A DNA stretch of 32,000 nucleotides, taken from contig JAEZTB010000042.1 of NCBI GenBank assembly GCA_023443745.1, positions 110,402 through 142,401 on the forward strand, written 5' to 3'. How positions within the stretch are numbered: the first letter of the stretch is position 1; every line of letters begins with the position of its first letter. The notes under the pieces are model-generated. The model did not search any database, was not told the DNA's origin, and worked only from the letters and a program-made list of their open reading frames with translations. This DNA comes from Bacillota bacterium. Its GTDB lineage: Bacteria; Bacillota; Clostridia; DSM-8532. Shown here in pieces: positions 1-28,515 of this stretch. The translations under genes were made by a program, and so were the position numbers.

Positions 1-782
1 GGGAAAACTACAAGCTTGATAAAAGCCTTCCTCATTATTTTGGTAAGGTTCCAGTCATATATTATGAAAACAATGACGAGGGCCTAGGGGACTTTGATAA
101 GATTGTTACTCTCATAGACGATTACGATAAGAGAGAGTCGGATAACTCAAATGAACTTGAAGCTTTTCGCTTTGCCTATTTGAAAATCAAAAATATGTCA
201 AACACAAGTGATGACGATATAGCTCGAGCGAAAAAAATCAAGGCTTTTTTTGTTGATGGTGATGGTGATGTTAGTTTTGTAGAAAAGAATATCAATGATG
301 GTTTCTCGGAACATCACTTGGAACGACTTGATAAGAATATTCATAAGTTTTCCAAGATACCCAACCTATCAGATGAAGCTTTTGGCGGTAATTTATCCGG
401 CGTAGCCATTAAGTTCAAGCTTTGGCCGATCGAGCAGCTGGCCATAGCAAAAGAACGCAAGTTCAAAACTGCATTGAAGCGCAGAATAAGGCTCATTTGT
501 GAGATATTCAGGATCAAGGCAAAGAACTACAATTGGAAAGATGTCGGTTTTACATTTAAACGAAATATGCCGTCCAACCTGCTTGAATTGGCTCAGATGA
601 TACCCAATATGGCGGGTACATTGTCAAACCGGACAATAATTAGCCAGATGCCTTTTGTTGAGGATCCGGATGAAGAGATCCGGCAACTTAAAGAAGAGCA
701 GAATGATCCTGATTCATATAGCGATTTCTTTAAAAAATCGGCTCTAAAGCAGGGTGAACGCCATGAAGAAGAAAAAGAATGA
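1..782 (+). CDS. Phage portal protein, SPP1 gp6-like, C-terminal part (5' end outside window)
   Basis: Frame 3 is open from base 3 (ENYKLDKSLPHYFGKVPVIYYENNDEGLGDFDKIVTLIDDYDKRESDNSNELEAFRFAYLKIKNM...). It has an acidic C-terminal tail and lies immediately upstream of the MuF/gp7 gene, as in SPP1-type head modules. Confidence 0.8.
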   Translation, partial: ENYKLDKSLPHYFGKVPVIYYENNDEGLGDFDKIVTLIDDYDKRESDNSNELEAFRFAYLKIKNMSNTSDDDIARAKKIKAFFVDGDGDVSFVEKNINDGFSEHHLERLDKNIHKFSKIPNLSDEAFGGNLSGVAIKFKLWPIEQLAIAKERKFKTALKRRIRLICEIFRIKAKNYNWKDVGFTFKRNMPSNLLELAQMIPNMAGTLSNRTIISQMPFVEDPDEEIRQLKEEQNDPDSYSDFFKKSALKQGERHEEEKE

Positions 783-2175
783 CATTTTAGAAAAAACAGT
801 AGCTATTGCCGATGACACCTTTAAAAAAGCAGAAAAACTTGGGGTTATTTTACAGGATGAATATATCTATACCCTTGAGGAGATGCAGAAAAGTATCGCA
901 GATTTTTACAGGAAGTATGCAAAAGAAACCGGAATGACCTATCAGGATGCTGTAAAATATCTCTCAAATGTTGAGCTTAAGCCATTTCGACATAAGATAA
1001 AAAAGTATACTCAGCTCATTAATAATGGTGATTTAGGTCTACTTGAGAGATTGAGGGCATTGGACACCAAAGAAAAAATAACCCGGCTTGAAAGCCTTAT
1101 AGCAGAAATAAACATAGAGCTGTACAAGCTGACATCTGCTAATGAAAATGCTTTAACGGAGCATCTTACAGAGTTATGTAAGAATACATATGAAGGTGTT
1201 GCAAATATTTTAGAGGGGAATCCCCATTTAAAGACATCCTTCGGAAAGCTGAACACCAGCCTGATTAATGAAACTATTAATATTAACTTCCCATGGTCGG
1301 GTGAGAGTTTCAGTGAAGCATTATGGGGTAATACGCAAAAGCTCTCCAGAGAGGTTAAGCGCGAGTTGGTGCGAGGCTTTACAAGAGGCTCAACAGTTCC
1401 CAAAATGGCATCCAATTTGTCAAAAACCATGGAAAGATCATATAAAGATGCTTTGAGGGTGGTAAGAACGGAGTCGGCTTATGTGCTGAATAAAACAAGC
1501 CTGCAAAGCTATAGTGATAGTGGTGTGGTCACTGCTGTTGAGTTTCTGGCCGTTCTGGACGGCAATACATCGGCGTTATGTTTTAACCTCAATGGTGATG
1601 TTATTTTGCTTGACAAGGCTGTACCGGGGGAAAATATTCCTCCCCTCCACCCTAATTGCCGTTCAACAACTATACCGGTTATTGACGACACAGAAGAATA
1701 TGTCGGTAAAATTGATATGGATCCTAAAAACGTGAACAAGGCTCTGGTGAAATATGAGGATAGGATATATAATCAACCTATAGAATATGCCTATACCATA
1801 TTGCCGGATGGGAATGTATATAAGATTACCGGCAATACGAGCGAGGTTCACCCGGAAAACATGGGGTTAGGCCTTAAAGGTGCGATAATAACACATAACC
1901 ACCCAGCGAATTCGAGCGAAGGCGGGTTTAGTAAAGATGATATCCGTTTCTTCTCAGAGTCCAAGCTGAAAGAACTTAGATTGGTGGACAAGGATTTTCG
2001 ATATTCATTGAGCGGAACAACTGGTGATATCGACACATATAAAAAAGCCATAAAAAATGTATGGAACACATATGATGTAGACGAATTGGACGATAGACAA
2101 ACACTATTGCATATATATGCAGAGGAATTTGCAAAGCTCACTGGAGCCAGATATACCCGTAAAGAAAGGAAATAG
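763..2175 (+). CDS. Head morphogenesis protein, Phage_Mu_F / SPP1 gp7 family, with an extra C-terminal RadC/JAB-like domain
   Basis: MuF-type core with the ...PPLHPNCRSTTIP motif (about nt 1640-1670). The C-terminal ~140 aa contain GNTSEVHPEN...GAIITHNHPANSSEGGFSKDDI (nt 1894-1941 = HNHP...SKDD). ATG 763 follows AGGGTG. GTG 754 is an alternative start. Confidence 0.8.
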   Translation: MKKKKNDILEKTVAIADDTFKKAEKLGVILQDEYIYTLEEMQKSIADFYRKYAKETGMTYQDAVKYLSNVELKPFRHKIKKYTQLINNGDLGLLERLRALDTKEKITRLESLIAEINIELYKLTSANENALTEHLTELCKNTYEGVANILEGNPHLKTSFGKLNTSLINETININFPWSGESFSEALWGNTQKLSREVKRELVRGFTRGSTVPKMASNLSKTMERSYKDALRVVRTESAYVLNKTSLQSYSDSGVVTAVEFLAVLDGNTSALCFNLNGDVILLDKAVPGENIPPLHPNCRSTTIPVIDDTEEYVGKIDMDPKNVNKALVKYEDRIYNQPIEYAYTILPDGNVYKITGNTSEVHPENMGLGLKGAIITHNHPANSSEGGFSKDDIRFFSESKLKELRLVDKDFRYSLSGTTGDIDTYKKAIKNVWNTYDVDELDDRQTLLHIYAEEFAKLTGARYTRKERK

Positions 2176-2176
2176 T

Positions 2177-2425
2177 ATGTTAGACCAAGATACGCTTGAC
2201 TTCATTGACACTTTTTTAGAGAAAAATAGAAAAGTGATTAGTGAAAATATGTTTGAAAAAGCCAAGGATGAATATACCTCAATTTATGAGGAGTATTACA
2301 AAAAAGCATCTAAAATCAAGCATAGTGGTGGTCTTGATGGCTCCGATGTTCCATTTCAAATTAGTTTAGATAAAGAAATCATGAAAAATATTAAACAGTT
2401 CAAACAGAAATACAACATTATCTGA
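2177..2425 (+). CDS. Hypothetical 82-aa helical protein, coupled to the MuF gene (candidate partner/immunity protein)
   Basis: ATG 2177 lies 1 nt after the MuF stop (TAG 2173-2175) with AAGGAAA just upstream. It is the same frame as track ORF 2117..2425. Sequence: MLDQDTLDFIDTFLEKNRK...KQKYNII. Confidence 0.6.
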   Translation: MLDQDTLDFIDTFLEKNRKVISENMFEKAKDEYTSIYEEYYKKASKIKHSGGLDGSDVPFQISLDKEIMKNIKQFKQKYNII

Positions 2426-2462
2426 TTTGACAAATTATTTGCGAAATTAACCATTTGATTAG

Positions 2463-2487
2463 AAACACCCATGAGGGTGTTTTTATT
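2463..2487 (+). terminator. Rho-independent terminator-like hairpin after the small ORF
   Basis: AAACACCC-ATGA-GGGTGTTT followed by TTATT. It lies in the 95-bp gap before the scaffold gene. Confidence 0.55.
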
Positions 2488-2520
2488 ATACTCAAAATCG
2501 TTTTATAGGAGGTTTTACAC

Positions 2521-3141
2521 ATGTTTCTTGGAAAGCATTTTTTATGTTTATCCCCTGATGGTGGTGCTGCAGGTGGCGGGTCAGGTGGAGGCGCTGCCGG
2601 TGAATCCGGATCGGGTGAAGGAACCAAGGCCGGTGAACAGAGCAGGGGCAGTCAAGAAGGTATCGAGCTGCCAAAGTCAGCTGATGAGCTAACTAAGATT
2701 ATTCAAGCAGAAACTGCAAAAGCGGTAACGGAAGCCACTGAAAAACTGACAACAGAGTTTAACACCAAGCTTGAGACCGAAAAGACAGAAGCGGTCAGAC
2801 TTGCGAAGCTCAGTGGAGAAGAGCGCGAAAAGGAGCAGGAAAAGAAACGCAAGGATGAATTGGATCAGCGCGAGTCTACTATCAAGCAGCAGGAGCTTAC
2901 TTTAAAAGCTACGGATATGCTTACCGCAAAAAACCTGCCGCTTGAGATCAGAAGCATGGTCATCGGGAAGGATGAAGCTGATACCAAATCCAGGATTGAA
3001 GCGTTTGAAGGTGTTTTTCAAAAAGCTGTTGAGGCGGCTGTATCCGCGAAGCTTGCCGGAAGTGCAAAGCCCGGTGCGGGCAAAGAACCGGACGAGGAAG
3101 CTGCTATCCGGTCCGAAATTGCCAGAGGTTTGGGCATATAA
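2521..3141 (+). CDS. Capsid scaffolding protein (DUF4355-like)
   Basis: AGGAGG lies 8 nt upstream of the ATG. Gly-rich N-terminus (SPDGGAAGGGSGGG), then an E/K-rich coiled-coil-like body. Position between MuF and the major capsid gene fits. Confidence 0.7.
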   Translation: MFLGKHFLCLSPDGGAAGGGSGGGAAGESGSGEGTKAGEQSRGSQEGIELPKSADELTKIIQAETAKAVTEATEKLTTEFNTKLETEKTEAVRLAKLSGEEREKEQEKKRKDELDQRESTIKQQELTLKATDMLTAKNLPLEIRSMVIGKDEADTKSRIEAFEGVFQKAVEAAVSAKLAGSAKPGAGKEPDEEAAIRSEIARGLGI

Positions 3142-3161: not shown

Positions 3162-4085
3162 ATGGCTAATCTTATTGAAAAGGCAAAAATATTCCAACAG
3201 GAGCTTGATAAACAGATGCTTGCCGGTGCTACATCCGGATGGATGGAAGATAATGCCGGTCAGGTAAAGTACAATGGCGGCAGCGAGGTCAAGATACCTA
3301 AAATCTCTATGGACGGCCTTGGAGATTATGACAGAGAAGAAGGGTTTGCGCAGGGTTCGGTTACCCTTTCCTTTGAAACGAAGACATTAACCCAGGACAG
3401 ATCCAGATCGTTTATGCTGGATAGCATGGATGTGAATGAATCTAATTTTATTGCGAACGCATCCAAGGTTATCGGTGAATTCCAGCGAACTAAGGTTATA
3501 CCTGAAGTCGATGCATACCGTTACTCGTCCATCACAGCACAAGCCATCGCTAAAGCAAAAGCAACAGGTGGCTATACTGCCGCTGCTGCAAGCATTCTGA
3601 CCAAAATCCAGGATGACATCAACGCTATACAGGATGTTACCGGAGAAATACAGCTGATGATCATACTCAGCGGTGCCATTGCCGGTTTGCTCGACAGCTC
3701 TTCCGAGATTCAGAAGAAGCTCAGTGTTATCGACTTTGCTCGAGGTGAATTAAAGCTGAAGGTAAAAGGAATTGATATTCATCCTATCATCCGGGTTCCA
3801 TCAGCACGAATGAAGTCAGCTTATGTTTTCAATAATGGTAAAACTGCCGGGCAGGAAGCCGGAGGCTTTACACCGGCAGTCGGGGCTAAAAATGTCAACT
3901 GGATCATTATTCCGCGGACAGAACCAATTGCTGTGTCAAAAACCGACACCCTCAGAATATTTGATCCGGCCACCAATCAAAAGGCTGATGCCTGGAAGAT
4001 CGACTATAGGAAGTATCATGATCTGTGGATCAAAGACAATGCTTTTGATGCTATCCGTGTCAATATAAAAGAAGCATTGGCGTAA
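3162..4085 (+). CDS. Major capsid protein
   Basis: 307 aa with a strong AGGAGG RBS. It lies directly after the scaffold gene, and the size and position fit the XkdG-type capsid gene. Confidence 0.75.
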   Translation: MANLIEKAKIFQQELDKQMLAGATSGWMEDNAGQVKYNGGSEVKIPKISMDGLGDYDREEGFAQGSVTLSFETKTLTQDRSRSFMLDSMDVNESNFIANASKVIGEFQRTKVIPEVDAYRYSSITAQAIAKAKATGGYTAAAASILTKIQDDINAIQDVTGEIQLMIILSGAIAGLLDSSSEIQKKLSVIDFARGELKLKVKGIDIHPIIRVPSARMKSAYVFNNGKTAGQEAGGFTPAVGAKNVNWIIIPRTEPIAVSKTDTLRIFDPATNQKADAWKIDYRKYHDLWIKDNAFDAIRVNIKEALA

Positions 4086-4097
4086 GGGGATATATGA

Positions 4098-4568
4098 ATG
4101 TTTACGCTTCAGAAACTTAATGTTGTCAAGGTGGTTGACTCCGAAGCCAAGAAAAACTTCTTGATTTCTCAGGGATTTGCATTGCTATCTGATGCCGATG
4201 AGCCTGATCAGGATGATGATCAACCCCCTGCAGCTGGTGAGCCTGGCAAGGGTAATGATCAACCTCCTGCAGCTGGTGAGCCCGGTCAGAGTGATGATCA
4301 ACCTCCTGCAGCCGATGAGCCCGATCATGATGATGAGCAACCCCCTGTAGCCGATGAGCCCGGTCAGGGTAGTGATCAACCTCCTGCAGCTGGTGAGCCT
4401 GGTCAGGTTGATGATCAACCTCCTGCAGCCGATGAGCCTGGTCAGGTTGATGATCAACCCCCGGCAGCCGATGAGCCCGGTCAAGGTGAAGACCAGCCTC
4501 CAGAAACTATAAGACCAAGGAGAGCGACATCACGGAACTCTACACCTAGGAAAAGAAGCACTAAATAA
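4098..4568 (+). CDS. Acidic Pro-rich tandem-repeat protein with a basic C-terminal tail (possible head decoration or accessory protein)
   Basis: AAGGGGA RBS 7 nt upstream. 35-aa N-terminal domain (MFTLQKLNVVKVVDSEAKKNFLISQGFALL), then about 8 copies of DQPPAA(G/D)EPGQxD, then TIRPRRATSRNSTPRKRSTK. Confidence 0.7.
   Translation: MFTLQKLNVVKVVDSEAKKNFLISQGFALLSDADEPDQDDDQPPAAGEPGKGNDQPPAAGEPGQSDDQPPAADEPDHDDEQPPVADEPGQGSDQPPAAGEPGQVDDQPPAADEPGQVDDQPPAADEPGQGEDQPPETIRPRRATSRNSTPRKRSTK
4192..4505 (+). repeat. 39-bp in-frame tandem repeat, 7 full units (4218-4490) plus partial units at each end
   Basis: Units start at 4218, 4257, 4296, 4335, 4374, 4413 and 4452 (gatcaacc[t/c]cctgcagc[t/c]g[g/a]tgagcc[t/c]ggtcag...). 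The region is locally GC-rich relative to its flanks. Confidence 0.95.
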
Positions 4569-16142: not shown

Positions 16143-16296
16143 AAGGTCTTTGCTATAAATAATTTCATATAGCAAAGGGAGCCTCCCGGCTGGTATCCGG
16201 TTAGCTCCCTCACACAGACCCCTACGTAGGAGGGGAAATGTGCTTGCGCTATAATTATAACATTCTGCCTCCTGCGTATCAATAGGAGGCTTTTTG
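16143..16296 (+). ncRNA. Structured ~150-nt 5' leader or small RNA, unclassified
   Basis: Four successive hairpins: 16148-16177 (CTTTGCTAT/ATAGCAAAG), 16176-16210 (AGGGAGC..CCGG-7nt-CCGG..GCTCCCT), 16219-16235 (CCCCT/AGGGG) and 16267-16290 plus a T-run. The 5' end is inferred from the promoter. Confidence 0.4.
16267..16295 (+). terminator. Terminator-like hairpin that contains the recombinase RBS
   Basis: GCCTCCT-10 nt-AGGAGGC followed by TTTTT. The right arm AGGAGG (16284-16289) lies 7 nt upstream of ATG 16297. Confidence 0.55.
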
Positions 16297-17286
16297 ATGA
16301 AAGAGGAACTTATTGTTAGGATCCTCACCCGCGCGTCTGAATTTCTGGATGATGTCCAGGTCAAGCAGCTCAGGCTTGTTCTTGACGAAGAATTCTACCA
16401 TGTACGTATTACATCAGAGTGTACAGATCTTGTAGTAACAGAAAACACACCTGGGAAGGTGATGTTATTTTTAGCTGCAAAAAAGCTTGATGGGATGAGC
16501 ATTAATACTATTAAAAATTATGCCATCATTCTCCGACGATTTTGTAACGTGGTACATAAGGATATTGAACAGATTACCTCTATGGATATCCGGATGTTTT
16601 TGGCATTACGAAGCAAAGACGGACTCAAGAAAAGTTCTATGGCTTCTACTATTGCTGCGCTGAAAAGCTTCTTCTCTTGGTTAGAAAATGAAGACTACCT
16701 TGTAAAAAGCCCAATGAGAAAAATCAAGAACATCAAGGTTGAAAAACGGCTCCGCAAGGCTTTATCACGGGAAGAGCTCGAAATGCTGCGTGATACGGCT
16801 AAAACTATAAGAGAAAAAGCTTTGCTTGAATTCTTTTATTCAACCGCCTGTAGGCTTGATGAAGCACAGACGCTTAATTTATCTGATATTGATTGGGTGA
16901 ATAATCAAGTAAGAGTTATCGGCAAAGGTAATAAGGAAAGAATAGTCTTCCTCAACGCGCGTGCCAGATTGCATTTAAAAAAATACCTTAAATCTCGAAA
17001 AGATAGCTGTGAAGCATTATTTGTCAGCGAAAGACTTCCACATGATAGACTTGGTCGGCGCGCAATTGAAAAAACTTTTACAGAACTCGGCATAAAAGCT
17101 GGGTTGCCTAAAAAGCTTTTTCCTCATCTAATGCGGCATACAACAGCTACACATATGCTCCAAGGCGGCGCAACATTAGAAGAGGTGCAAAATTACCTAG
17201 GCCATGACAGTCCGGCCACTACCCAGGTCTACACTCAAATTAGCACAGATGCAATTAAACAAAGTCATTTAAAACATGTTATTTGA
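16297..17286 (+). CDS. Tyrosine site-specific recombinase / phage integrase (XerC/XerD-like)
   Basis: N-terminal SAM-like domain, then catalytic residues: R in STACRLDE, K in GKGNKER, HLMRHT (H-x-x-R), LGHDS, and Y in TQVYTQ. ATG 16297 is preferred over TTG 16294. Confidence 0.9.
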   Translation: MKEELIVRILTRASEFLDDVQVKQLRLVLDEEFYHVRITSECTDLVVTENTPGKVMLFLAAKKLDGMSINTIKNYAIILRRFCNVVHKDIEQITSMDIRMFLALRSKDGLKKSSMASTIAALKSFFSWLENEDYLVKSPMRKIKNIKVEKRLRKALSREELEMLRDTAKTIREKALLEFFYSTACRLDEAQTLNLSDIDWVNNQVRVIGKGNKERIVFLNARARLHLKKYLKSRKDSCEALFVSERLPHDRLGRRAIEKTFTELGIKAGLPKKLFPHLMRHTTATHMLQGGATLEEVQNYLGHDSPATTQVYTQISTDAIKQSHLKHVI

Positions 17287-17339: not shown

Positions 17340-17963
17340 ATGAAAATTATTGAAGAAACTTATAAGTGGAAACCCGGAGTAAAATTTTCACCCAATGTGC
17401 CTGATACGATAGTTATTCATCATGCTGGATCAAAAAGTTGTACAGCACAGGAAATCCACAGATGGCACCTAGATAGAGGATGGATAGGCTTTGCTTACCA
17501 TTACTTTATTAGAAAAGATGGAACAATCCATCATGGCCGTCAGGAAAATCAAAGAGGTGGCCATTTATTAGGTGCAGAGAACATAAACACCGTGGGAATT
17601 TGCTTGGAAGGTTGCTACACAGATTACATTGCAAAAGGGCAAGTACTGACCGAAAAAATAGTACCCGAATCCCAATTAAAAGCATTAATTGAGCTTTGCA
17701 TGGATATTAAATCTCGTTGGGCAATTAAGGCTATTAAGAAGCATTCAGATTATTCATCAGCTCAACAGGCAAAAAAAGACTGCCCTGGTCGTTACTTTCC
17801 ATGGGAACAGTTCACTCTTATGGTACATAACCCATTCCTGGCTTATCAAAAAATAATCCAAGAAAAATGTCACTTCTCAAATCCTGATGGAGTTTGGAAA
17901 GTACTTAATACCCACCCTTTTGCGGAGGCTTTGTATAAGCAATGGGTCGAAAGCTACAAGTAG
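17340..17963 (+). CDS. N-acetylmuramoyl-L-alanine amidase (Amidase_2/PGRP-type endolysin)
   Basis: Motifs TIVIHHAGS, GWIGFAYHYFI, NTVGICLEG and KKHSDY...KDCPG. Only 207 aa, with no recognisable cell-wall-binding repeat domain. Confidence 0.85.
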   Translation: MKIIEETYKWKPGVKFSPNVPDTIVIHHAGSKSCTAQEIHRWHLDRGWIGFAYHYFIRKDGTIHHGRQENQRGGHLLGAENINTVGICLEGCYTDYIAKGQVLTEKIVPESQLKALIELCMDIKSRWAIKAIKKHSDYSSAQQAKKDCPGRYFPWEQFTLMVHNPFLAYQKIIQEKCHFSNPDGVWKVLNTHPFAEALYKQWVESYK

Positions 17964-18532: not shown

Positions 18533-19060
18533 CTACACGTACGCTTCGATATAATCTATGGCGTAATCAGTCAGACAGTCTGTGCGATAACCGTCAAACT
18601 CAATCTTATTACCATCTTTATCAAAAACATAGCCACCGTAGCCGTGGGAGGTGAATTCCAATACATCGGAAGCCATCCAAAAGTCGTCATATCCACCACG
18701 CCTGTCAAGGGGAACGGCTATCGTTTCGAAATGATTGCATTCATGATCGGAGGCTAAATGCCATTTACCGACATAACCTACATTATAACCGGCTTCACGC
18801 ATTCTCCTGGCAATTGTATGCGCGTTAAGGGGAAGGGAAATGGCATTGCGATAGCAGCCTGTTTGCGTGGGATAAAGCCCTGTCTGGAGCATGGCCCTTG
18901 CAGGCCCGCATACAGGCTGAGGTGTAAAGGCATTAATAAAGTTTACACCCTCCTCAGCAAACTGATCCAGGTTGGGAGTAATATCCAGAGGTTGACCATT
19001 GCATCCAAGCGTATCATAGCGCTGTTGATCGGATAAGAAGACCAAAATATTCTGTTTCAT
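18533..19060 (-). pseudogene. Cys-type sulfatase, N-terminal 175 aa only (3' end removed by prophage insertion)
   Basis: MKQNILVFLSDQQRYDTLG..., CGPARA (C-x-P-x-R formylglycine motif) and GKWH. Typical sulfatases are about 450-500 aa. Similarity stops at ...DYAIDYIEAYV*, next to the AT-rich phage end. Confidence 0.8.
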
Positions 19061-19071
19061 CCTATTGCCTC

Positions 19072-19905
19072 CTACTCTTTAACTGCGCCGGCAGTCAGTC
19101 CTGAAATCATATACTTCTGAAGGAAGATGAACAATAGTAGTATAGGAATAGCCGCGCTGACAGCAGAAGCCATGACTCTGCCCCAATCATAATTGTACTC
19201 ACCCAGATAAGTCATTGCTATCCCTGAAGCAAGCGTACGCATGGTAGTCTTGTTAACTAGGGTAAGGCCCCAGAGAAAGTCCTCCCATGAAATTAAAAAT
19301 GAATAGAGGCCGACAGCAAGAATGCCCGGCTTGACCAATGGTAGAATGATTTGAAAAAGAGCCCTGGGCTTACTGCATCCATCAATAGAGGCAGCTTCCT
19401 CCAACGATTTCGGAATAGTATCAAAAAAGCCCTTTAATATCCAGACCGACATTGGCAACGCATTGGTGGAACAGGCCAGTACCAAAGCGGTGTAACTGTT
19501 AATGAGACCCATCTTGCTATACATATTGAATAGAGCAATCAAAAGCGTCATTGCAGGGAACATCTGAGTAGACAGGAATAACATTAAGAGAAACTTGTCT
19601 CCTTTAAATCTATACCTTGAAAACGCATATGCCGCAAATACTGCCAAAGCCATGGTAACAAGCGTGGTAACCCCGGATACAATAACATTGTTCTTATAGA
19701 ATACCACGAAATGTCCGTCACCCAGAATTCCTTTGTAATTTTCCAGGGTTACATGTTGCGGAAGAAGCTGCGGAGGCAGCCTTAAAATGGCTTCATTAGG
19801 CTTAACTGACGTTAAAATCATCCAATAGATCGGAAAGACAAAACATATTGTTATTGATAAAAGGCCAAGAAACATGAGCCATTTATTTGATTTTCCAGAT
19901 AGCAT
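19072..19905 (-). CDS. Carbohydrate ABC transporter permease (MalG-like)
   Basis: Six TM segments. EAA loop: LEEAASIDGCSKPRALFQIILPLVKPG. Confidence 0.9.
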   Translation of the reverse strand: MLSGKSNKWLMFLGLLSITICFVFPIYWMILTSVKPNEAILRLPPQLLPQHVTLENYKGILGDGHFVVFYKNNVIVSGVTTLVTMALAVFAAYAFSRYRFKGDKFLLMLFLSTQMFPAMTLLIALFNMYSKMGLINSYTALVLACSTNALPMSVWILKGFFDTIPKSLEEAASIDGCSKPRALFQIILPLVKPGILAVGLYSFLISWEDFLWGLTLVNKTTMRTLASGIAMTYLGEYNYDWGRVMASAVSAAIPILLLFIFLQKYMISGLTAGAVKE

Positions 19906-19919
19906 CCCACCCTACCCCC

Positions 19920-20798
19920 TTAATACTGTATCTCTTTTTTAGAAAGTATCTTGTTATATACTGTTGAAAAGATGATGAGAAACAAAAGCCAGCATACGCC
20001 TATTGCGGCACCCTTTCCCATATTAAAGCCTGTAAAAGCAGTTTCATAGGTATAGAGCGGGAGTGTTGTGCTTGCACGTACAGGCCCGCCTCCTGTCATC
20101 GTAAAGAACAGTACAAACATTTGGAAATTGGAAATGATGGATGTGAGCGTTACGGTTTTAATGACTGGCATGATGCAGGGTATGGTGATGACCTTAAACT
20201 TCTGCCAGGTGCTTGCACCATCAATAACAGCTGCTTCCTTAAGGTCTTCCGGTACTGTTTGAAGACCTGATAAGAGCATAATCATCATAAGAGGCATTTG
20301 TTTCCACACTGCAGCGACAATTACACCAAGCATTGCAGTCTTTGAGCTTCCAAGAATGCTGTAATCACCAAGCTGGAGAAGATAATTGGCAATACCGTAC
20401 TGAGGCTGGAATATGAACATCCAGGTCACGGCTACAACAAGCGAGGGAATAGTCCACGGAAGGAAGAGCAGACTGCGAAAAAGCTTTCTGCCCCTTATTT
20501 TGCTATTGTTAAGTAAAAGTGCAACTGCCAAACCGATAAAGAATTGTGTTGAAACGGTACCCAGTACATAGATCAATGTGCGTAAAAAGGTTTGTAAAAA
20601 CTCTTTATCGGTGAATACCGATTTGTAGTTGGCGAAATTATTCCAGACAATATTTTGGATATCCATAAGGCTATAGTGAAAAAAGCTCATGCCGATCACA
20701 ACGAAAACAGGAATAATAATGGTAAACGTCAGCATTGCTACTGCAGGAGTGAGCAGGCCGATCATAAACCAGTTGAATTTTCTCTTGCCGTTTGCCAT
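19920..20798 (-). CDS. Carbohydrate ABC transporter permease (MalF-like)
   Basis: EAA loop: LKEAAVIDGASTWQKFKVITIP. ATG 20798 lies 6 nt after GAGGTG. The GTG 20807 in the track overlaps the RBS. Confidence 0.9.
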   Translation of the reverse strand: MANGKRKFNWFMIGLLTPAVAMLTFTIIIPVFVVIGMSFFHYSLMDIQNIVWNNFANYKSVFTDKEFLQTFLRTLIYVLGTVSTQFFIGLAVALLLNNSKIRGRKLFRSLLFLPWTIPSLVVAVTWMFIFQPQYGIANYLLQLGDYSILGSSKTAMLGVIVAAVWKQMPLMMIMLLSGLQTVPEDLKEAAVIDGASTWQKFKVITIPCIMPVIKTVTLTSIISNFQMFVLFFTMTGGGPVRASTTLPLYTYETAFTGFNMGKGAAIGVCWLLFLIIFSTVYNKILSKKEIQY

Positions 20799-20816
20799 TT
20801 TAAACACCTCTGTCTT

Positions 20817-20847
20817 AAAAAAATGAGGAGGGGTAATTCCCCTCCCC
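20817..20847 (-). terminator. Intra-operon hairpin/attenuator after the binding-protein gene
   Basis: On the - strand: GGGGAGGGG-AATTA-CCCCTCC, then TCATTTTTTT. Confidence 0.45.
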
Positions 20848-20863
20848 GTAAAATTCTGGCTTT

Positions 20864-22207
20864 TTATTGGCCGTATATGGTCTTTATTGTAGCTTCAGTT
20901 TCTGCTAAAACTGTTTTAATATCTTCTTTTGCAACAACAATACGCTCTACCGCTTTTGTCATTTCGTTCATTGCATTGTCGAACATTGCACTGGTTGCAG
21001 GCAACGGACTCGCGGTTTCAGATTGTTTATTAAATACTTCCATGAAATAGTCCTCATTCATCTCAGGCAGAGCAGCAATAGATTTTCTTGCCGAAAGGAC
21101 TGCATTGGATTTGTGATATTTCAGCATAGCATCTTTACTAATGAGATACTCGCAGAGCTTTATAGCTGCTTCTTTCTTTTCGGACTTGGCATAAACAGCC
21201 AACTGATGCTCTGTATATACTGTTTCACTGCGGCCGGTCTTACCGGTAGGAATGATAGCTATGCCCATTTTTTTGTCAAATTCCTTATCCAAACCGCTGC
21301 TCTTTCTGTATGCACCACGTCCCATATCACCATCGAAAATGATGCCGATCTGACCGGCGGCAAAGAGACCTCTGAGATCCTTGATTTCTAGGCCCATGGG
21401 GATTACTTTTTCATCAACAAGGGTTTTAAGATATGTAAGGGCTTCAATGTTTCCTTCGTTGTTTATGACAACTTTGCCGTCCGCATCAACAAACCGGCCT
21501 CCAAAGGCATAAAGTACGCCATTTAGAACTGTACCGGTATGAGCAACCTTACCGGTAGGGATTCCTAAGCCATAAAGAGTATTACCCGATGCATCCTTGC
21601 CAAGCTTGGAAATTGCTCTGGCAGCCGCCGTCATCTCCTCCCATGTTGCAGGAGCTTTTTCGGGGTCAAGACCAGCTTTCGTGAAGAGTTCCTTATTGTA
21701 GTACATCGCGATAGGGTGAGGAGCCCAGGAAAGAGCCTTGACCTTACCATTATAGGTAGTGCCGGAGAGATAGCCGGGATAAATATCAGCCAGGACTTCT
21801 TTGGATGCCAATGTATCCAACTCCGCCAAGATGCCTGACCCGTTAAAAGCACTCATCATCTGTGAATTTCCCATAATGACATCTGCTGTATTTCCGGATG
21901 TACCGGCAATTAAAATCTGATCTTTATACTGATTAAAGGGAATGGCAATTGACTCAACCTTGATGCCTGGATTTGCTGCCATAAAATCATTTAAGAGCTC
22001 TTTAAATATTGCTGAGGTTGCTTCTTCAGCTTCCAGCCAGTTACTTATTGTAATTGTAACGTCTTTTGCAGGCTCAGGCGTGCTTGAGGTTTCTGCCGGA
22101 GCCGAGGAAGTTGGCGTTGCACTGTTTTCGGCAGGCTGGCTTCCGCATCCCGCTAAGGCCACTACAACCATAATTATAGCCAAAAGTAAGCTTAAAAACT
22201 TTTTCAT
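20864..22207 (-). CDS. ABC transporter extracellular solute-binding lipoprotein (sugar family 1)
   Basis: Lipobox LAGC in MKKFLSLLLAIIMVVVALAGCGS, followed by a Ser/Thr/Pro linker. 447 aa with an AGGAGG RBS. Confidence 0.9.
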   Translation of the reverse strand: MKKFLSLLLAIIMVVVALAGCGSQPAENSATPTSSAPAETSSTPEPAKDVTITISNWLEAEEATSAIFKELLNDFMAANPGIKVESIAIPFNQYKDQILIAGTSGNTADVIMGNSQMMSAFNGSGILAELDTLASKEVLADIYPGYLSGTTYNGKVKALSWAPHPIAMYYNKELFTKAGLDPEKAPATWEEMTAAARAISKLGKDASGNTLYGLGIPTGKVAHTGTVLNGVLYAFGGRFVDADGKVVINNEGNIEALTYLKTLVDEKVIPMGLEIKDLRGLFAAGQIGIIFDGDMGRGAYRKSSGLDKEFDKKMGIAIIPTGKTGRSETVYTEHQLAVYAKSEKKEAAIKLCEYLISKDAMLKYHKSNAVLSARKSIAALPEMNEDYFMEVFNKQSETASPLPATSAMFDNAMNEMTKAVERIVVAKEDIKTVLAETEATIKTIYGQ

Positions 22208-22288
22208 GGTAATCCTCCTTTAATGATATAAATCTTTTGAACATGAGGCTTTTTGTGATCACACTAATGATTATAAATGACAGTAATA

Positions 22289-22326
22289 TGAAAAAATAGG
22301 ACATTAAATTCACTTTGCGTCCTATT
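22289..22326 (-). terminator. Terminator-like hairpin after the response regulator gene
   Basis: On the - strand: AATAGGAC-16 nt-GTCCTATT followed by TTTTTT. The loop is large. Confidence 0.45.
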
Positions 22327-22374
22327 TAATCAGTATTCTTTGTTTTTCAGAACAATTATTATCTATTTTGCCGG

Positions 22375-23082
22375 TTAACGCTCAGAACTCGGTGTTACGC
22401 CAAAATACTCTTTGTAGATATGAGTGAAGTGCTTGGTACTGTTATATCCTATCATTCTGCTTATATCAATGATGGAGAGGTCGGTATTTTGTATTAATTT
22501 GCGGCTTTTATCCATGCGAAGCTCAGTTAGGTAATCTATATATTTCTTGCCTGTCTGCTTTTTGAAAAGCGTAGAAAAGTAATTTGTATTCATATTGACT
22601 TCCCGGCTTACATCTTCAAGACTGATGTTTTTGTAAAAATTGTTTTCGATAAAGGATAGAGCCTTACTGATTGTATCCTGAGTTATCTTTGGCTGTGAGT
22701 TCTCTGTGGGAGCATCAGGGATATGCCACAAGGCATTCAGGCGTTGGATTAATTCAAAGCGGTTTATTGGCTTCAGGATATAATCGTGCACCCCATACTT
22801 GATAGCAGTTCGGGCATATTCAAACTCACTGTATGCACTTATAATGATAAACTGTGTCTTTAGATCACTGTTGTGAGCCTTTTGGATCATCTCCAGCCCG
22901 TTCATGAAGGGCATTTTAATATCTGTTATGGCAATGTCGGGACAAAAGGAAACTAAATTCTGATAGCCTTCCCTGCCATTCTCACATTCTTCAATCAATA
23001 AATCGGCGTAGGTCTTTTCTAAAATTTTGCGTATCCCTTGTCTGATAATACCTTCGTCATCACATATTAATAGCTTTTTCAT
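22375..23082 (-). CDS. Two-component response regulator, CheY receiver + AraC-type HTH (YesN-like)
   Basis: MKKLLICDDEGIIRQG...DIAITDIKMPFMNG (receiver domain) and a C-terminal AraC HTH (ISRMIGYNSTKHFTHIYKEYFGVTP). ATG 23082 lies 8 nt after GAGGAG. Confidence 0.9.
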   Translation of the reverse strand: MKKLLICDDEGIIRQGIRKILEKTYADLLIEECENGREGYQNLVSFCPDIAITDIKMPFMNGLEMIQKAHNSDLKTQFIIISAYSEFEYARTAIKYGVHDYILKPINRFELIQRLNALWHIPDAPTENSQPKITQDTISKALSFIENNFYKNISLEDVSREVNMNTNYFSTLFKKQTGKKYIDYLTELRMDKSRKLIQNTDLSIIDISRMIGYNSTKHFTHIYKEYFGVTPSSER

Positions 23083-23102
23083 CGGTATCACTCCTCACCA
23101 AT

Positions 23103-24794
23103 TTATTGAATCGGTATTTTTATGGATGTAATTGTACCAAAACCTGAGCGTGACCTAATCCGGAAACAACCTTTCTCTCCATAAGTCAGGCGCAGCCTTC
23201 GACTTAAGTTTCTCAGGGCGAAGCAGTCCATGGTTTCATCATTATTATCAGATTTAAGAAGCTCGTGAATGCGATGAATTCTATCTTTTGATATGGCCTC
23301 GCCATCATTATAGACATGTATGATAAGAAATTTTTTGGTTTTTCGGGCCGTAATCAACAAATGACAATGACCCTGGGGTATATTTTCAAAGCCATGCTTG
23401 ACGGCATTTTCAACAAGAGGCTGTAAGCAGAGCCGAGGCAATGACTGTAATAAACAATTGTCGGATATGCGGTAAGATATCTCAAATTTCTCTGGTGCTC
23501 TTATTTTCTGAATAGTCACATAATTCTTAACATTTTCCAGCTCCTCGGACAGCTTAACCTTCGTATCAGGGTTCATGGCATATCGCATCATTGCCGAAAA
23601 GGCATGTGTGATTTCAACAATTTCATAATTATCGCGAATAACGGCCAGCATTGATATACTTTCAAGCGTATTGTATACAAAATGAGGATTGATTTGGCTT
23701 TGAAGTGCTTGTATTCGTGCATGCTGGTTTTCTATCTGGGAAAGGTAATTTTTTTCAATCAATAATTTCATATCTCTTGCCATGGTATTAAGACTTTTGG
23801 AAAGATCTCCTATTTCATCGTTATGACGGTCTGAGACAGCTACCTCCAGATTGCCTGCTGCAATTTCCTTTGTTGCATTGCGAAGCTTAATAATCCTTTT
23901 GGCAAACCAATCTGTGAACATCTTGTCAATAAAGTAAAGAAAAAACAATACAGCAACCAGTCCTGCAGTAAAATATAGATAAGCAATACTAGAGTCTTTT
24001 TGAATCTCTTTGAGCGGAAGCCGGTATTCTACTTGAAGGCCGAGTGCTTTCCCATAGACTGAAAAATAGTTTTTATTTGGAATGTAATGATCAGAAGCTA
24101 TTAATTCATCTCCAAGTAGAACGGCGTTGGCATTATCATTGATGAGGGTCTTAAAAATATCGTAAACTTTATTTCTATCCAGCTCCACATACGATATACC
24201 TATTACCTTTCCGTTCTGCATGTCGAAAATGGTATTGGCCAGCACGATAACCGGCTCTCCTTTCTCAAGGCTTTTCCCTGTACCAAAATAAAAGGGAGCT
24301 TCGCCTGTTAAAAGGCCTTTAAACCATTCTGCGTCAGAATAGGCCAAATAAAGATCCAAATCCATAAAATCCTTGGAAAAGGTTTTACTTGAATCGCTCA
24401 GGTATAAGGACAAATTCACAGTGCGCATGTCCGAGGAATAAATATTGGCCAGCCTGTTACGCATGAAGTCCCTCGTATCGAGCCTGGCTTTGTAATTTTC
24501 AACAGTATAGTTCCTTATGGCCTTCTGTACATTGATATCTGTTGAAAGAGAAAAGATTCCTTCCTTCGCACGAGAAACCCAAAGATCCATTTCTTCGACT
24601 GTTTTATCCAAAGCTATTTGTGCCTGTGTTTTGGCGTTGTCAACCGTAACATTGAAAAAGATAATAGAAGTAACGGTAAATATAATAATTAGAGGAATTA
24701 CAGCCACAATCCAATGGGAGAGTGTCAGCTTGGTATGAATTGAAAAATCACTAATACGAAAGCGAAATTTTTCCATTGACCGGCCCTTCATCAT
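23103..24794 (-). CDS. Sensor histidine kinase (YesM-like: 2 TM, HAMP, His_kinase, HATPase)
   Basis: HAMP region (KRIIKLRNATKEIAAGNL...), QINPHFVYNTLESI H-box, and LQPLVENAVKHGF N-box. The start is uncertain (ATG 24794, 24791 or 24776; GTG 24800 overlaps the RBS). Confidence 0.85.
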   Translation of the reverse strand: MMKGRSMEKFRFRISDFSIHTKLTLSHWIVAVIPLIIIFTVTSIIFFNVTVDNAKTQAQIALDKTVEEMDLWVSRAKEGIFSLSTDINVQKAIRNYTVENYKARLDTRDFMRNRLANIYSSDMRTVNLSLYLSDSSKTFSKDFMDLDLYLAYSDAEWFKGLLTGEAPFYFGTGKSLEKGEPVIVLANTIFDMQNGKVIGISYVELDRNKVYDIFKTLINDNANAVLLGDELIASDHYIPNKNYFSVYGKALGLQVEYRLPLKEIQKDSSIAYLYFTAGLVAVLFFLYFIDKMFTDWFAKRIIKLRNATKEIAAGNLEVAVSDRHNDEIGDLSKSLNTMARDMKLLIEKNYLSQIENQHARIQALQSQINPHFVYNTLESISMLAVIRDNYEIVEITHAFSAMMRYAMNPDTKVKLSEELENVKNYVTIQKIRAPEKFEISYRISDNCLLQSLPRLCLQPLVENAVKHGFENIPQGHCHLLITARKTKKFLIIHVYNDGEAISKDRIHRIHELLKSDNNDETMDCFALRNLSRRLRLTYGEKGCFRIRSRSGFGTITSIKIPIQ

Positions 24795-24894
24795 GAACAC
24801 CTCAATGGTCCAGTTTTCATCAGTATATTATAGATAGAAAATTAATTCAAAGATAAGTTTTTTGGCAATATGATTTGAAAGTTAGGAGCATTTA

Positions 24895-24933
24895 TCAAAA
24901 AAGCTGCCCCGTATTCTAACGAGGCAGCTTTTT
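24895..24933 (-). terminator. rpoBC operon terminator (bidirectional-looking hairpin)
   Basis: On the - strand: AAAAAGCTGCCTCG-loop-CGGGGCAGCTTTTTT, 35 nt after the rpoC stop. Confidence 0.7.
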
Positions 24934-24967
24934 CATGATACTTATACCATTTTGTTTAGTCTACTGA

Positions 24968-27900
24968 TCATTTGTCATTAATGTCTAGTTCTATATCCCT
25001 ATATTTGGCCATACCTGTTCCTGCAGGGATAAGCTTACCAATAATGATATTTTCCTTAAGACCAATGAGCGGGTCAATCTTGCCCTTTATAGCGGCTTCA
25101 GTGAGAACCCTTGTGGTTTCCTGGAAGGATGCCGCCGACAAGAAGGATTCGGTTGCGAGGGACGCCTTGGTAATACCCAGGAGTGAACGCTTGCCGGTTG
25201 CAGGCCTTAAGCCCTGTTCCTCAGCAGCACCATTCTTCTCCTCAAATTCAAACATATCCACAAGACTTCCTGGAAGCATATCGGTGTCACCATACTCATC
25301 AATTTTAACTTTTCTGAGCATTTGACGGACGATAACTTCAATATGCTTGTCGTTGATATCAACGCCCTGCAGTCTGTAAACCTTCTGGACTTCCTGGAGC
25401 AGATATCTTTGAACAGCTTGAATACCCTTGATTTTCAGGATATCGTGAGGATTGACGGAACCTTCGGTAAGTTCGTCACCGGCCTCGATAACCTCACCAT
25501 CGGCTACCTTTATTGATGAACCGTATGGGATGAGATAGGTCTTGGCTTCTCCGTTTTCGTTGTTGGTAACCTCTATCTCACGCTTTTTCTTGGTATCCTT
25601 AATGCGCACGGTTCCTGCCAATTCGGAAACGATGGCAAGACCCTTGGGCTTACGGGCTTCGAAAAGCTCCTCAACACGGGGAAGACCCTGAGTAATGTCA
25701 TCACCGGCTACACCACCGGTGTGGAAGGTACGCATGGTGAGCTGGGTACCAGGTTCACCAATGGACTGGGCTGCAATAAAGCCTACTGCTTCACCCACAT
25801 TACATTCCTCACCATTGGCAAGGTTAACACCATAACACTTGGCGCAAACGCCTACACGTGAACGGCAGGTGAGAACTGAACGTATCTTCATCTTGTTGTA
25901 TCCGGCCTTCTCAACCTTTTCAGCAAGAGGCTCGGTAATGAGCTCATTGGCTTTTACAATAACCTCTCCGGTAGCCTTGTCAACGATATCTTCGGGTGCG
26001 AAACGGCCTGTAAGACGTTCAGCCAAGCCCTCAATGGTCTTGCCGCTTATAACGATGGGCTGAATCTCAATGCCGTCGGTTGTACCACAGTCATCCTCAC
26101 GGATGATCACATCCTGGGAGACGTCAACCAGACGACGGGTCAGGTATCCTGAGTCAGCGGTACGAAGAGCAGTATCGGCCAGACCCTTTCTTGCTCCGTG
26201 AGTGGAGATAAAGTATTCCAAAACATTGAGTCCTTCACGGAAGTTGGACCGGATCGGAATCTCAAGGGTTTCACCGGAGGTATCTGCCATAAGTCCACGC
26301 ATACCGGCCAGCTGTCTGATCTGGTTGATATTACCGCGGGCTCCTGACTGAGACATCATGTAAACCGGATTAAACCTATCCAGAGAACTGATCAAGGCAT
26401 TCTTGATCTCCTCGGTGGTCTTGTTCCAGGCTGTGATGATGGCGCTCTTGCGTTCTTCTTTATTATAGAGACCGTTTCTGTAGTGCTTTTCGATCTCTTC
26501 GACCTTCCTGTCGGTCTCTTCAAGGTATCTCTGCTTAACCTCAGGAATGGTCATATCGGTAATACCGATGGTGATGGCTCCCTTTGTAGAGTATTTAAAG
26601 CCCAGCGACTTAATATTGTCGAGCACAACGGCTGTCTTGTTGGTGCCGTTAATGCGGATGGAGCGATCAATGATTTTACCCAGTTCCTTCTTGCCTACCA
26701 GGAAGTCAACTTCGTAGTTAAACATGGTTTCAGGATCGGTTCTGTCCACATAACCCAGGTTTTGGGGAATGGCAGTATTGAATATGATCTTACCCACAGT
26801 GGTATTAATGACCTTTGATTTTTCCACGCCGTCGAATACCCTTGTGACTCTGACCTTAATACGTGAATGCAGGCTTACGGCTTTATTTTCATAGGCCATA
26901 ACAGCTTCTTCGGTGCTGGCAAAAACCTTGCCTTCACCTATTACGCCATTGGTGATGTTACCGTTCTCATCTCTTTCAGCCTCTTTTTCTATGGTTAGGA
27001 AGTAGCTGCCCAGAACCATATCCTGGGTAGGAACAGTAACCGGCTTGCCGTCCTGCGGCTTTAAGAGGTTATTGGCTGAAAGCATCAGAATACGCGCTTC
27101 AGCTTGAGCCTCAGCAGAAAGTGGAACGTGCACAGCCATCTGGTCACCGTCAAAGTCGGCATTATAGGCAGTACATACCAGAGGATGCAATTTAATGGCA
27201 CGGCCCTCAACCAAAACCGGTTCAAAGGCTTGTATACCTAATCTGTGAAGGGTAGGCGCACGGTTTAAAAGAACGGGATGTTCCTTGATAACTTCTTCAA
27301 GAACGTCCCAGACCTCTGTCTTAACACGCTCCACCATACGCTTCGCACTCTTGATGTTATGAGCAAGTCCTCTTTCTACAAGCTTCTTCATGACGAAGGG
27401 CTTGAAGAGCTCCAGAGCCATTTCCTTGGGAAGGCCGCACTGGAAAATCTTAAGCTCAGGGCCTACCACGATAACGGAACGACCGGAGTAGTCAACACGC
27501 TTACCCAGAAGGTTCTGGCGGAAGCGGCCCTGCTTACCCTTAAGCATGTCGGAGAGGGACTTCAGCGGACGGTTGCCCGGTCCGGTAACAGGACGCCCAC
27601 GGCGACCATTGTCAATAAGCGCGTCAACAGCTTCCTGAAGCATACGCTTTTCATTTCTGACAATGATTTCAGGTGCGCCGAGATCTAAAAGTCTCTTCAA
27701 ACGGTTATTTCTGTTTATCACTCTTCTATACAGATCATTTAAGTCGGAGGTAGCAAAACGGCCGCCATCCAACTGAACCATAGGACGAAGCTCCGGAGGA
27801 ATGACAGGTATGACATCAAGAACCATCCATTCCGGACTATTTCCGGAACCACGGAAGGCTTCTACGATTTCCAGACGCTTGATGGCACGAATCTTCTTCT

Positions 27901-28501
27901 GACCGTTAGCGTTTTCTACCTCGTCTCTCAGATCCTTGGCCAGCTTTTCCATATCCATATTGGACAGGAGCTCTTTTACAGCTTCCGCACCCATGCCGGC
28001 TCTGAAGTTATTCCCGAATTTATCAATACTCTCACGGTATTCTTTCTCATTTAAGACCTGCTTCTGAGAAAGAGGGGTGCTCCCTGGATCAATGACCACA
28101 TAGGAGGCGAAGTAAAGAACCTTTTCAAGAGCTCTTGGCGACATATCCAAAAGTAAGCCCATTCGGCTGGGTATACCCTTGAAATACCAGATATGGGAAA
28201 CAGGTGCAGCCAGTTCAATATGGCCCATGCGCTCACGGCGTACCTTTGAGCGTGTTACCTCAACACCGCAGCGATCGCATATGATACCCTTGTAACGAAC
28301 GCGCTTATATTTTCCGCAATGGCATTCCCAGTCCCTGGTAGGTCCAAAAATCCTCTCACAGAACAAACCGTCTCGTTCGGGCTTCAAGGTTCTATAATTG
28401 ATGGTCTCGGGCTTTTTAACCTCTCCTCTTGACCATTCACGGATTTTTTCCGGGGAGGCAAGACCAATCTGTATGGCATCGAAATTATTCAATTCAAACA
28501 T
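24968..28501 (-). CDS. rpoC: DNA-directed RNA polymerase subunit beta'
   Basis: 1177 aa. Zn-finger [23 protein letters not shown], catalytic NADFDGD, and an N-terminus that is unmistakably RpoC. Confidence 0.98.
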
Positions 28502-28515
28502 TCCTTGTCACCCTC

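Follow-up and report, generated by a model that had tools for sequence, protein, structure and literature searches.

We analysed a 32,000-nucleotide (nt) stretch of DNA from a Bacillota bacterium (GenBank assembly GCA_023443745.1, contig JAEZTB010000042.1, positions 110,402 to 142,401 of the forward strand), which is referred to below as the window. The head module of a prophage lies at its start, and within it a gene for a MuF/gp7 minor head protein is positioned between the portal gene and the scaffold and capsid genes. This report concerns the C-terminal extension of that protein, a RadC/JAB-like domain, together with the open reading frame (ORF) of 82 amino acids (aa) directly behind it. 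The MuF protein has 473 aa when read from a GTG start and 470 aa in the database gene call, which begins at an ATG; an identical protein (P0001) is present in the public collection. Phage_Mu_F (PF04233) was matched at aa 200-307 with 56.6 bits (cut-off 29.6) and TIGR01641 (phageSPP1_gp7) with 78 bits (cut-off 39.65), and phrog_115, labelled 'minor head protein', matched aa 3-441 (E 3e-86). Judged by its sequence, the 473-aa protein is a bona fide MuF/gp7 minor head protein, and the first-pass annotation, which had been made from the DNA letters and their translations, was correct in reading the first ~320 aa as SPP1-gp7/MuF. The carrier part terminates at ...CRSTTIPVIDD. In the closest relatives, found at loci L065 and L186, the MuF protein has 308 aa and ends at ...IPVVDD, and the N-domains are 51% identical to that of the window protein. 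A prohead-protease role, taken from the label of phrog_595, was rejected, as the phrog_595 match was confined to the MuF part.

A separable C-terminal domain on several head carriers

No match to aa 323-473 was found in Pfam, NCBIfam or the PDB sequences, nor in PHROGs beyond phrog_115. A word-indexed homologue search with the C-domain alone missed all relatives, and the 1.84 billion cluster representatives were searched exhaustively with phmmer instead. This search returned 507 representatives at E<=1e-3 and 81 at E<=1e-10, and the domain family comprises at least 507 clusters at 50% identity. Residue conservation was counted in an alignment of the best 150 homologues. E344, H381, H383 and D396 were invariant in all 150, and S393 was kept in 134; N382, P384, G353, G360, E335, D412, H453, Y467 and R469 were near-invariant. 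In the window protein, the motif reads H381-x-H383-x9-S393-x-x-D396, with THNHP at aa 380-384. The first-pass annotation had quoted this peptide with its H-x-H-x9-S-x-x-D spacing; both are present as quoted, and the conservation of E, H, H and D places the motif beyond chance. The C-domains are acidic, with a mean net charge of -8 and an isoelectric point (pI) of 5.2 in 42 members.

The domain was found on four kinds of head protein and also alone. Among 123 representatives sorted by carrier, 51 had Phage_Mu_F, 18 had Phage_min_cap2, six had VG15 (PF25310) and one had Phage_portal_3; the remaining 47 were short or stand-alone proteins. Versions of 223-330 aa that stand alone or have a short N-terminus were observed in other phage contexts at L017, L026, L038, L041, L047, L057, L058 and L059, and some of these versions are preceded by a run of 106-169-aa genes and not by a portal gene. 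Two proteins carry the domain repeatedly: P0076 (1232 aa) contains MuF, a DRAT-like ADP-ribosyltransferase (ART) and four intact JAB copies, and P0028 (823 aa) contains three intact JAB copies. Conserved Gly-rich linkers separate the copies, (K)GGPGSGIxGH in P0076 and GSGNWAHTGLEDVHGGS / GSGNWAHTGLEDVHGGSDPGGG in P0028, and from their sequences these linkers look like polyprotein junctions or processing sites. When 50,697 GenBank phage records were searched with tblastn, the domain was matched in three; the family therefore occurs mainly in uncultured phages and prophages.

The first-pass annotation had allowed that the C-terminal region might be an ordinary conserved part of gp7-family proteins. 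The comparisons revealed instead that the C-terminal ~150 aa are a separable domain and not an ordinary gp7 part. A Pfam toxin domain was not found in it. Identity with PBECR/MuF-C was also considered and rejected, as the C-domain had no such match at E<=1 and none appeared among 25 of the 36 families that 42 members matched at E<=10. The conserved set of the domain is E/HxH/S..D, and its N-terminal helix has a conserved Glu and not a His.

Remote relationship to RadC-type JAB domains

The family profile was compared by hhalign with a profile of 12 RadC JAB domains (E. coli YicR and plasmid homologues). The comparison showed a probability of 77.5% and an E-value of 1.9e-5 over 74-94 columns, in contrast to the controls, an unrelated profile (0.2%) and the reversed RadC profile (0.9%). 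In this register E was paired with E, G with G, V.P with V.P, HNHP with HNHP and S..D with S..D; at lower stringency, the LRGxD of the family was paired with the LDH of RadC. Within Pfam, RadC was the sole family matched by more than one single-copy member, namely two of the 42 at E 0.024 or weaker. The gathering score of RadC (PF04002) is 22.1 bits, which four-copy P0076 passes with 28.8 bits; three-copy P0028 reached 20.6 bits.

Prediction of the whole protein with AlphaFold2 (AF2) from a single sequence was unusable, with a predicted local distance difference test score (pLDDT) of 36.6. With a 42-sequence alignment of the C-domain, AF2 gave a pLDDT of 93.9 and a predicted TM-score (pTM) of 0.88. 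The model starts with a helix (2-16), which is followed by strands 23-27 and 33-37, a short helix (45-48), a strand (56-60), a helix (72-80), strands 85-89 and 93-98, and then two helices and the last strand. Overall, an N-terminal helix precedes a core of five strands among which two helices are interspersed, and a helix-helix-strand extension closes the C-terminal end. In particular, the Glu lies before strand 1, the HxH at the end of strand 3 (56-60) and the S..D at the start of helix 72-80; in secondary structure, this predicted placement of E, HxH and S..D fits the JAMM arrangement. All five residues of the JAMM motif are present, although their spacing is not exact.

A Foldseek search of viral models (BFVD) placed family members first, followed by uncharacterised proteins of nucleocytoplasmic large DNA viruses (NCLDV). 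The named matches came next and were weak (E 0.007-0.07, TMq 0.34-0.41); they comprised deaminase, metalloprotease, deubiquitinase, Rpn11-like, MPN and JAB models, along with one crAss-like model labelled ubiquitin-like protein. As a separate observation, the NCLDV matches had E-values of 1e-4 to 1e-2 and TMq values of 0.41-0.55, most of them outranked the annotated JAB/MPN models, and they included African swine fever virus (ASFV) F317L, Frog virus 3 3R and proteins of Harvfovirus, Heterosigma akashiwo virus and iridoviruses.

We found the window domain and the RadC JAB domain (PF04002; E. coli YicR and its plasmid and prophage paralogues) to be similar in the order of their elements: the E, then a G behind the hairpin, V-x-P, HNHP at the end of a strand, S-x-x-D at the opening of a helix and a conserved Asp in a further strand. 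Several differences were present. The window domain has FS..D and not PS..D, no 'SG' after HNHP, and nine rather than seven residues between His and Ser; additionally, it has an extra N-terminal helix as well as a helix-helix-strand at the C-terminus with a conserved His and Y-x-R. The location also differs, as the window family resides on capsid proteins, whereas RadC occurs with HhH, ArdC-N or helicases. By its sequence, the domain is remotely related to RadC-like JAB domains, has an apparently intact catalytic set and lies outside PF04002 as defined; because the relationship is remote, we named it 'RadC-like' and not a RadC family member. The profile comparison and the conserved catalytic set uphold the RadC/JAB-like assignment of the first-pass annotation, and they make it likely that the C-domain is a RadC-like metal hydrolase domain.

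The 82-aa ORF and the region before the scaffold gene

The MuF stop codon (TAG, 2173-2175) and the ATG of the 82-aa ORF (2177) are 1 nt apart, as had been noted before, and the AGGA Shine-Dalgarno sequence of the ORF lies within the MuF 3' end. The encoded protein consists of charged helices flanking a G-G-L-D-G turn and has the C-terminus ...KQKYNII. DUF5104 (E 0.12), EcoR124_C and MazE for the small ORF were considered and rejected, as these matches (E 0.003-0.12) did not reach their cut-offs. A word-indexed search with the ORF returned itself alone; a profile search, used instead, revealed 27 members of the family, which are 60-82 aa long and free of Pfam domains. Six homologues were looked up, and in four cases the gene directly follows one for a JAB-bearing Phage_min_cap2 or VG15 protein (JAB E 1e-38 to 1e-54). 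The small-ORF family is found directly 3' of the JAB domain on three carriers, MuF, Phage_min_cap2 and VG15. The other two, the strong homologues P0162 and P0169, are orphans in bacterial-looking neighbourhoods (L191 2501..2740 and L194 2501..2707), with an ApbE gene in each locus and no JAB domain within 2.5 kb; remnants of prophages, or orphan genes of an immunity-like kind, could account for them.

With a degenerate DNA pattern for G-A-x-V-T-H-N-H-P, 48 IMG/VR loci were collected, and the family hidden Markov model (HMM) confirmed every one of them. An ORF of 40-130 aa was counted as coupled when it started between -60 and +15 nt from the stop of the JAB gene, and most of those counted overlap it by 4-16 nt. 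Such an ORF was present in 26 of the 33 distinct JAB loci with downstream sequence. The window type, in which a charged helix leads through a G(G)-L-D-[GST] turn into a second helix and the C-terminus carries [KR]-K-Y-G, accounted for 16 of the 26; since those sequences were used to build the HMM, this count is partly circular. As a control, 99 distinct MuF loci were collected with a P-P-x-H-P-N-C-R pattern, and 93 of them have no JAB domain (43 short and 50 long-tailed). A window-type small ORF followed none of these 93 genes (maximum 6.5 bits), which speaks against the possibility, raised in the first-pass annotation, of a head-assembly gene conserved independently of the domain. A coupled small ORF of any kind was present at 11 of the 43 short and 39 of the 50 long-tailed loci; this reproduces the MuF-toxin pattern published in PMC5576092.

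The loci L065 and L186 are collinear with the window head module, and both are without the JAB domain and without the small ORF. In L065, whose sequence was read, the scaffold and capsid proteins are clearly homologous to those of the window. The scaffold gene begins 88 nt after the short MuF gene in these two loci. Since they lack the domain and the ORF together, the unit of insertion or deletion is about 1714..2425. The co-variation proposed in the first-pass annotation was thus observed, as both elements are absent together and the pair recurs on three carriers; the 82-aa ORF and the C-domain very likely form a cassette.

In five loci of a more divergent JAB clade, an unrelated 88-aa Cys-rich partner was found instead. 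This protein (at L019, L023, L033 and similar loci) has the pattern CxxCxxCxxCKHF...C.AF..IP and overlaps the JAB stop by 4 nt. By eye, the N-terminus of P0028 contains a very similar Cys-rich module, which precedes the three JAB copies, and this fusion would be a Rosetta-stone-type sign that JAB and its small partner cooperate. Fusion of the small-ORF module itself to a JAB protein was not found among 150 representatives.

A 95-nt spacer separates the 82-aa ORF from the scaffold gene and contains a hairpin (2460-2485) followed by a T-run, which the first-pass annotation had taken for the cassette's own terminator. The hairpin is real: it folds with -14.3 kcal/mol (z -4.3), and none of 200 shuffles folds as well, although a simple terminator scan did not list it. 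Its attribution to the cassette did not hold. The same hairpin and an identical GGTGTTTTTATTATAC lie upstream of the scaffold gene in cassette-less L065, so the hairpin belongs to the MuF-scaffold intergenic region. In both the window (2426..2520) and L065 (4419..4506), the hairpin and T-run are followed by a conserved TATAGGAGGT ribosome-binding region. This region could be a regulatory or stoichiometry element between the low-copy genes (portal, MuF) and the high-copy genes (scaffold, capsid).

Table 1. Features of the head module around the MuF gene, with positions in the window.
Feature	Position	Strand	Basis
SPP1-type portal gene, 3' part	180..782	+	Pfam SPP1_portal, E 9.6e-53
MuF/gp7 minor head protein gene with C-terminal extension	754(GTG)/763(ATG)..2175	+	ORF list, Pfam, NCBIfam, PHROGs
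MuF carrier part, aa 1-320	754..1713	+	51%-identical MuF of L065/L186 stop here
RadC/JAB-like domain, aa 323-473	1720..2172	+	507 homologues, AF2, hhalign, weak BFVD matches
Predicted metal/catalytic residues	E344 1783-1785; H381-N-H383 1894-1902; S393 1930-1932; D396 1939-1941	+	Conservation, RadC alignment
82-aa partner ORF, translationally coupled	2177..2425	+	Leave-one-out family HMM; family position after JAB-bearing head proteins
Hairpin (11-bp stem, 4-nt loop) and T-run	2460..2489	+	Folding energy, kept in L065
Scaffold gene	2521..3141	+	Pfam DUF4355 (Gp46 scaffold), E 2.2e-21
Capsid-like gene	3162..4085	+	ORF list

Downstream of the head module, we found a tape-measure gene, a tyrosine recombinase and an amidase. 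The recombinase (Phage_integrase) lies between the tail region and the amidase endolysin, in a part of the window with the coordinates 16294..17286 and 17340..17963. Past the amidase, host genes occupy the opposite strand, namely those for an ABC transporter and a histidine kinase, rpoC (24968..28501) and rpoB (28516..31923). These host genes (18533..31923, minus strand) abut the prophage end, and because they adjoin it on the other strand the element is an integrated prophage. After the capsid gene, a 156-aa ORF (4098..4568) contains 7.9 tandem copies of a 39-nt unit with 82% matches; this array (4194..4501) encodes acidic, Pro-rich repeats (DDQPPAAGEPGQ). At the equivalent position in L065 (6093..6323), a homologue shares the N-terminus and carries an Ala/Lys/Glu-rich repeat in place of the acidic one.

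Proposed function and comparison with known systems

SPP1 gp7 binds the portal, is packaged in a few copies and exits with the DNA. By analogy, the MuF/gp7 part of the window protein may serve as a capsid-targeting carrier that loads the fused enzyme into the capsid. From its sequence, the fused domain would be a divergent RadC-type JAB in which the Glu acts as general base, the His-x-His and Asp as metal ligands and the Ser in the oxyanion site. As an active, Zn-dependent enzyme, it would hydrolyse a host target after entering the next cell along with the genome. The 82-aa protein would most likely act as an immunity protein or stoichiometric inhibitor and keep the enzyme blocked in the cell that produces it, and we give this role for the partner about an even chance. 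Small immunity proteins accompany the MuF toxins Apk2 and Bxa (PMC11699363). Domain separability, conservation of the catalytic set, remote homology to RadC, the restriction of the carriers to portal-proximal head proteins and the joint inheritance with the small ORF are shown by the comparisons; we infer packaging, ejection and inhibition from SPP1 gp7 and the MuF toxins (PMC5576092, PMC11699363, PMC5512222), and catalysis and the substrate are likewise proposed by analogy. Overall, the locus probably encodes a virion-delivered RadC-like metallohydrolase with its cognate inhibitor, of the MuF polymorphic-toxin kind. As to the substrate, we lean slightly towards a peptide or isopeptide over a nucleic acid or nucleotide, because the full JAMM set with the oxyanion Ser is present and the domain is acidic (mean pI 5.2).

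Several results weigh against a RadC-like toxin with its own inhibitor. The Pfam RadC model matched neither the window protein nor its C-domain at E<=1. The HMMER profile returned only noise from the PDB sequences, and Foldseek against the PDB gave nothing meaningful (best E 0.11, TM below 0.3). The JAB fold expected from the first-pass annotation was therefore only partly borne out by structure search: motif placement in the AF2 model and weak viral-model matches agree with it, whereas no solved JAB structure was retrieved, so that the fold assignment rests on the profile comparison, the motif geometry and those viral models. The His-to-Ser spacing of x9 departs from the canonical x7, and in P0028 it is x6 (counted by eye). 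On the side of the partner, seven of the 33 JAB loci are without a coupled small ORF by the limits given above, and the divergent clade has the Cys-rich protein instead. The membership of the 82-aa ORF in its family also depends on a low score: against an HMM built without it, the ORF scored 10.6 bits, a value reached by five of 5000 composition-matched shuffles (empirical p about 0.001). Finally, secretion-system or other toxin-carrier domains were absent from the 123 representatives, which is atypical for a polymorphic-toxin domain.

The plainest alternative is that the C-terminal region is a non-catalytic extension of gp7, the small ORF a generic head-assembly gene and the motif a coincidence. 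Although phrog_115 aligns up to aa 441 and MuF genes are commonly followed by small ORFs, the comparisons already contradict such a reading, which is extremely improbable: the closest relatives L065 and L186 have neither element, E, HxH and D do not vary among the 150 relatives, the domain is found by itself as well as on four carriers unrelated to each other, its distribution among GenBank phage records is sparse, and the window-family small ORF follows no non-JAB MuF gene. Processing of head-internal proteins deserves more weight. The JAB domain might be a self-processing or maturation peptidase that cuts head-internal proteins (MuF, cargo linkers or scaffold) in the procapsid or after ejection, with the small protein as a regulator or chaperone and no effector/immunity pair. 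The three or four intact copies with Gly-rich linkers in P0028 and P0076, which resemble polyprotein junctions, are consistent with this, as are the proposal of Iyer et al. that peptidase domains process capsid-packaged polyvalent proteins (PMC5512222) and the lack of a recognisable prohead protease among the scanned genes of the window head module. However, the window protein has a single copy and no Gly-rich linker, L065 and L186 show that the same head module forms without the domain, which is thus dispensable for morphogenesis, and strict co-inheritance of a small partner would be expected more typically for an enzyme with its inhibitor. We consider a maturation peptidase unlikely.

Two further alternatives retain delivery into the host and differ in the substrate. 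A RadC-like toxin that processes DNA, RNA or a nucleotide signal would have the same architecture and partner logic. Iyer et al. predict nucleic-acid or nucleotide processing for RadC JAB domains because the fold is shared with deaminases and because of fusions to helicases and ArdC-N (PMC5512222); the BFVD matches include deaminase models, and more than half of the known MuF toxins are nucleases (PMC5576092). Such a substrate is also unlikely, as domains that bind nucleic acids are not usually so acidic, most relatives retain the Ser that forms the oxyanion site in JAMM peptidases, and the literature found contains no demonstrated nuclease activity for any RadC protein. Alternatively, the JAB domain could remove ubiquitin-like (Ub-like) conjugates of the Bil type, or of the Cap2 type of the cyclic-oligonucleotide-based anti-phage signalling system (CBASS), from phage or host proteins as infection starts. 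Isopeptide cleavage is the classic chemistry of JAMM enzymes, arrival together with the DNA would have the enzyme in place ahead of phage gene expression, and phage or viral deubiquitinase and Rpn11-like models were among the BFVD matches. On the other hand, the profile affinity is to the RadC clade and not to Prok-JAB or classic MPN+, the RadC clade is without the ubiquitin-tail groove according to Iyer et al. (PMC5512222), and a co-inherited inhibitor is not obviously needed by such an enzyme. We regard an anti-defence isopeptidase as quite improbable. The broader proposition, that a capsid-delivered enzyme and inhibitor strip host Ub-like (Bil/CBASS-Cap2-type) conjugates or constitute some other new early-infection hydrolase, is improbable; if true, conjugate stripping would represent a new class of pre-packaged anti-defence effector.

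Cargo borne by MuF proteins is a known and little-explored route by which temperate phages inject enzymes. To this route the locus adds a large cargo family that is absent from Pfam, with a full JAMM-type site, its own small partner and four capsid carriers, and the product may be a new effector that gut Firmicutes phages use early in infection. Plasmids, prophages and chromosomes very commonly encode RadC-like JAB proteins, whose biochemical function is disputed. The likely inhibitor and the natural delivery route would allow a direct genetic or biochemical assay for RadC-like function, and the family may be the first tractable handle on that of RadC-type JAB domains.

Upon comparison with known systems, the closest likeness was to the MuF polymorphic toxins, as described in PMC5576092 and (for Apk2 and Bxa) PMC11699363. 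In both, a prophage gene that lies between those for portal and scaffold encodes an N-terminal MuF domain and a separable C-terminal domain with an enzymatic function (a predicted one in the window), a small ORF is positioned directly downstream, and related MuF N-domains occur with and without the extension. The cargo is different: the MuF toxins described there carry ART, RelA-like, nuclease, deaminase or zincin domains, of which only the alarmone synthetase Apk2 and the ADP-ribosyltransferase Bxa are given as characterised (PMC11699363), whereas the window cargo is an uncatalogued RadC/JAB-like domain. Unlike the toxin cargo, the window domain was not found on non-phage toxin carriers, and its partner belongs to a new family of 60-104 aa. 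With SPP1 gp7, the prototype short MuF, the window protein shares the TIGR01641/PF04233 matches of its N-terminal 320 aa and the position of its gene directly after an SPP1-type portal gene; in contrast to the short MuF proteins of L065 and L186, it adds a 150-aa enzyme-like domain and a partner gene. Among the polyvalent and MuF- or portal-fused effectors (PMC5512222), PBECR, 2H, InPase and PRTase domains are likewise fused to MuF or portal proteins, and the multi-domain P0076 resembles the polyvalent proteins. That 2017 survey reported RadC domains only in conjugative-element proteins and not in phage-type ones (PMC5512222), whereas the window family puts a RadC-like domain on phage head carriers. 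We found no description of a MuF-JAB fusion in the open-access literature, and the first-pass annotation had likewise not recognised the fusion as a characterised one. The architecture best fits the known pattern of a MuF toxin with a small ORF; the logic of such a system is already established, and the new element is a large, so far unstudied family of enzymes that comes with its partner built in.

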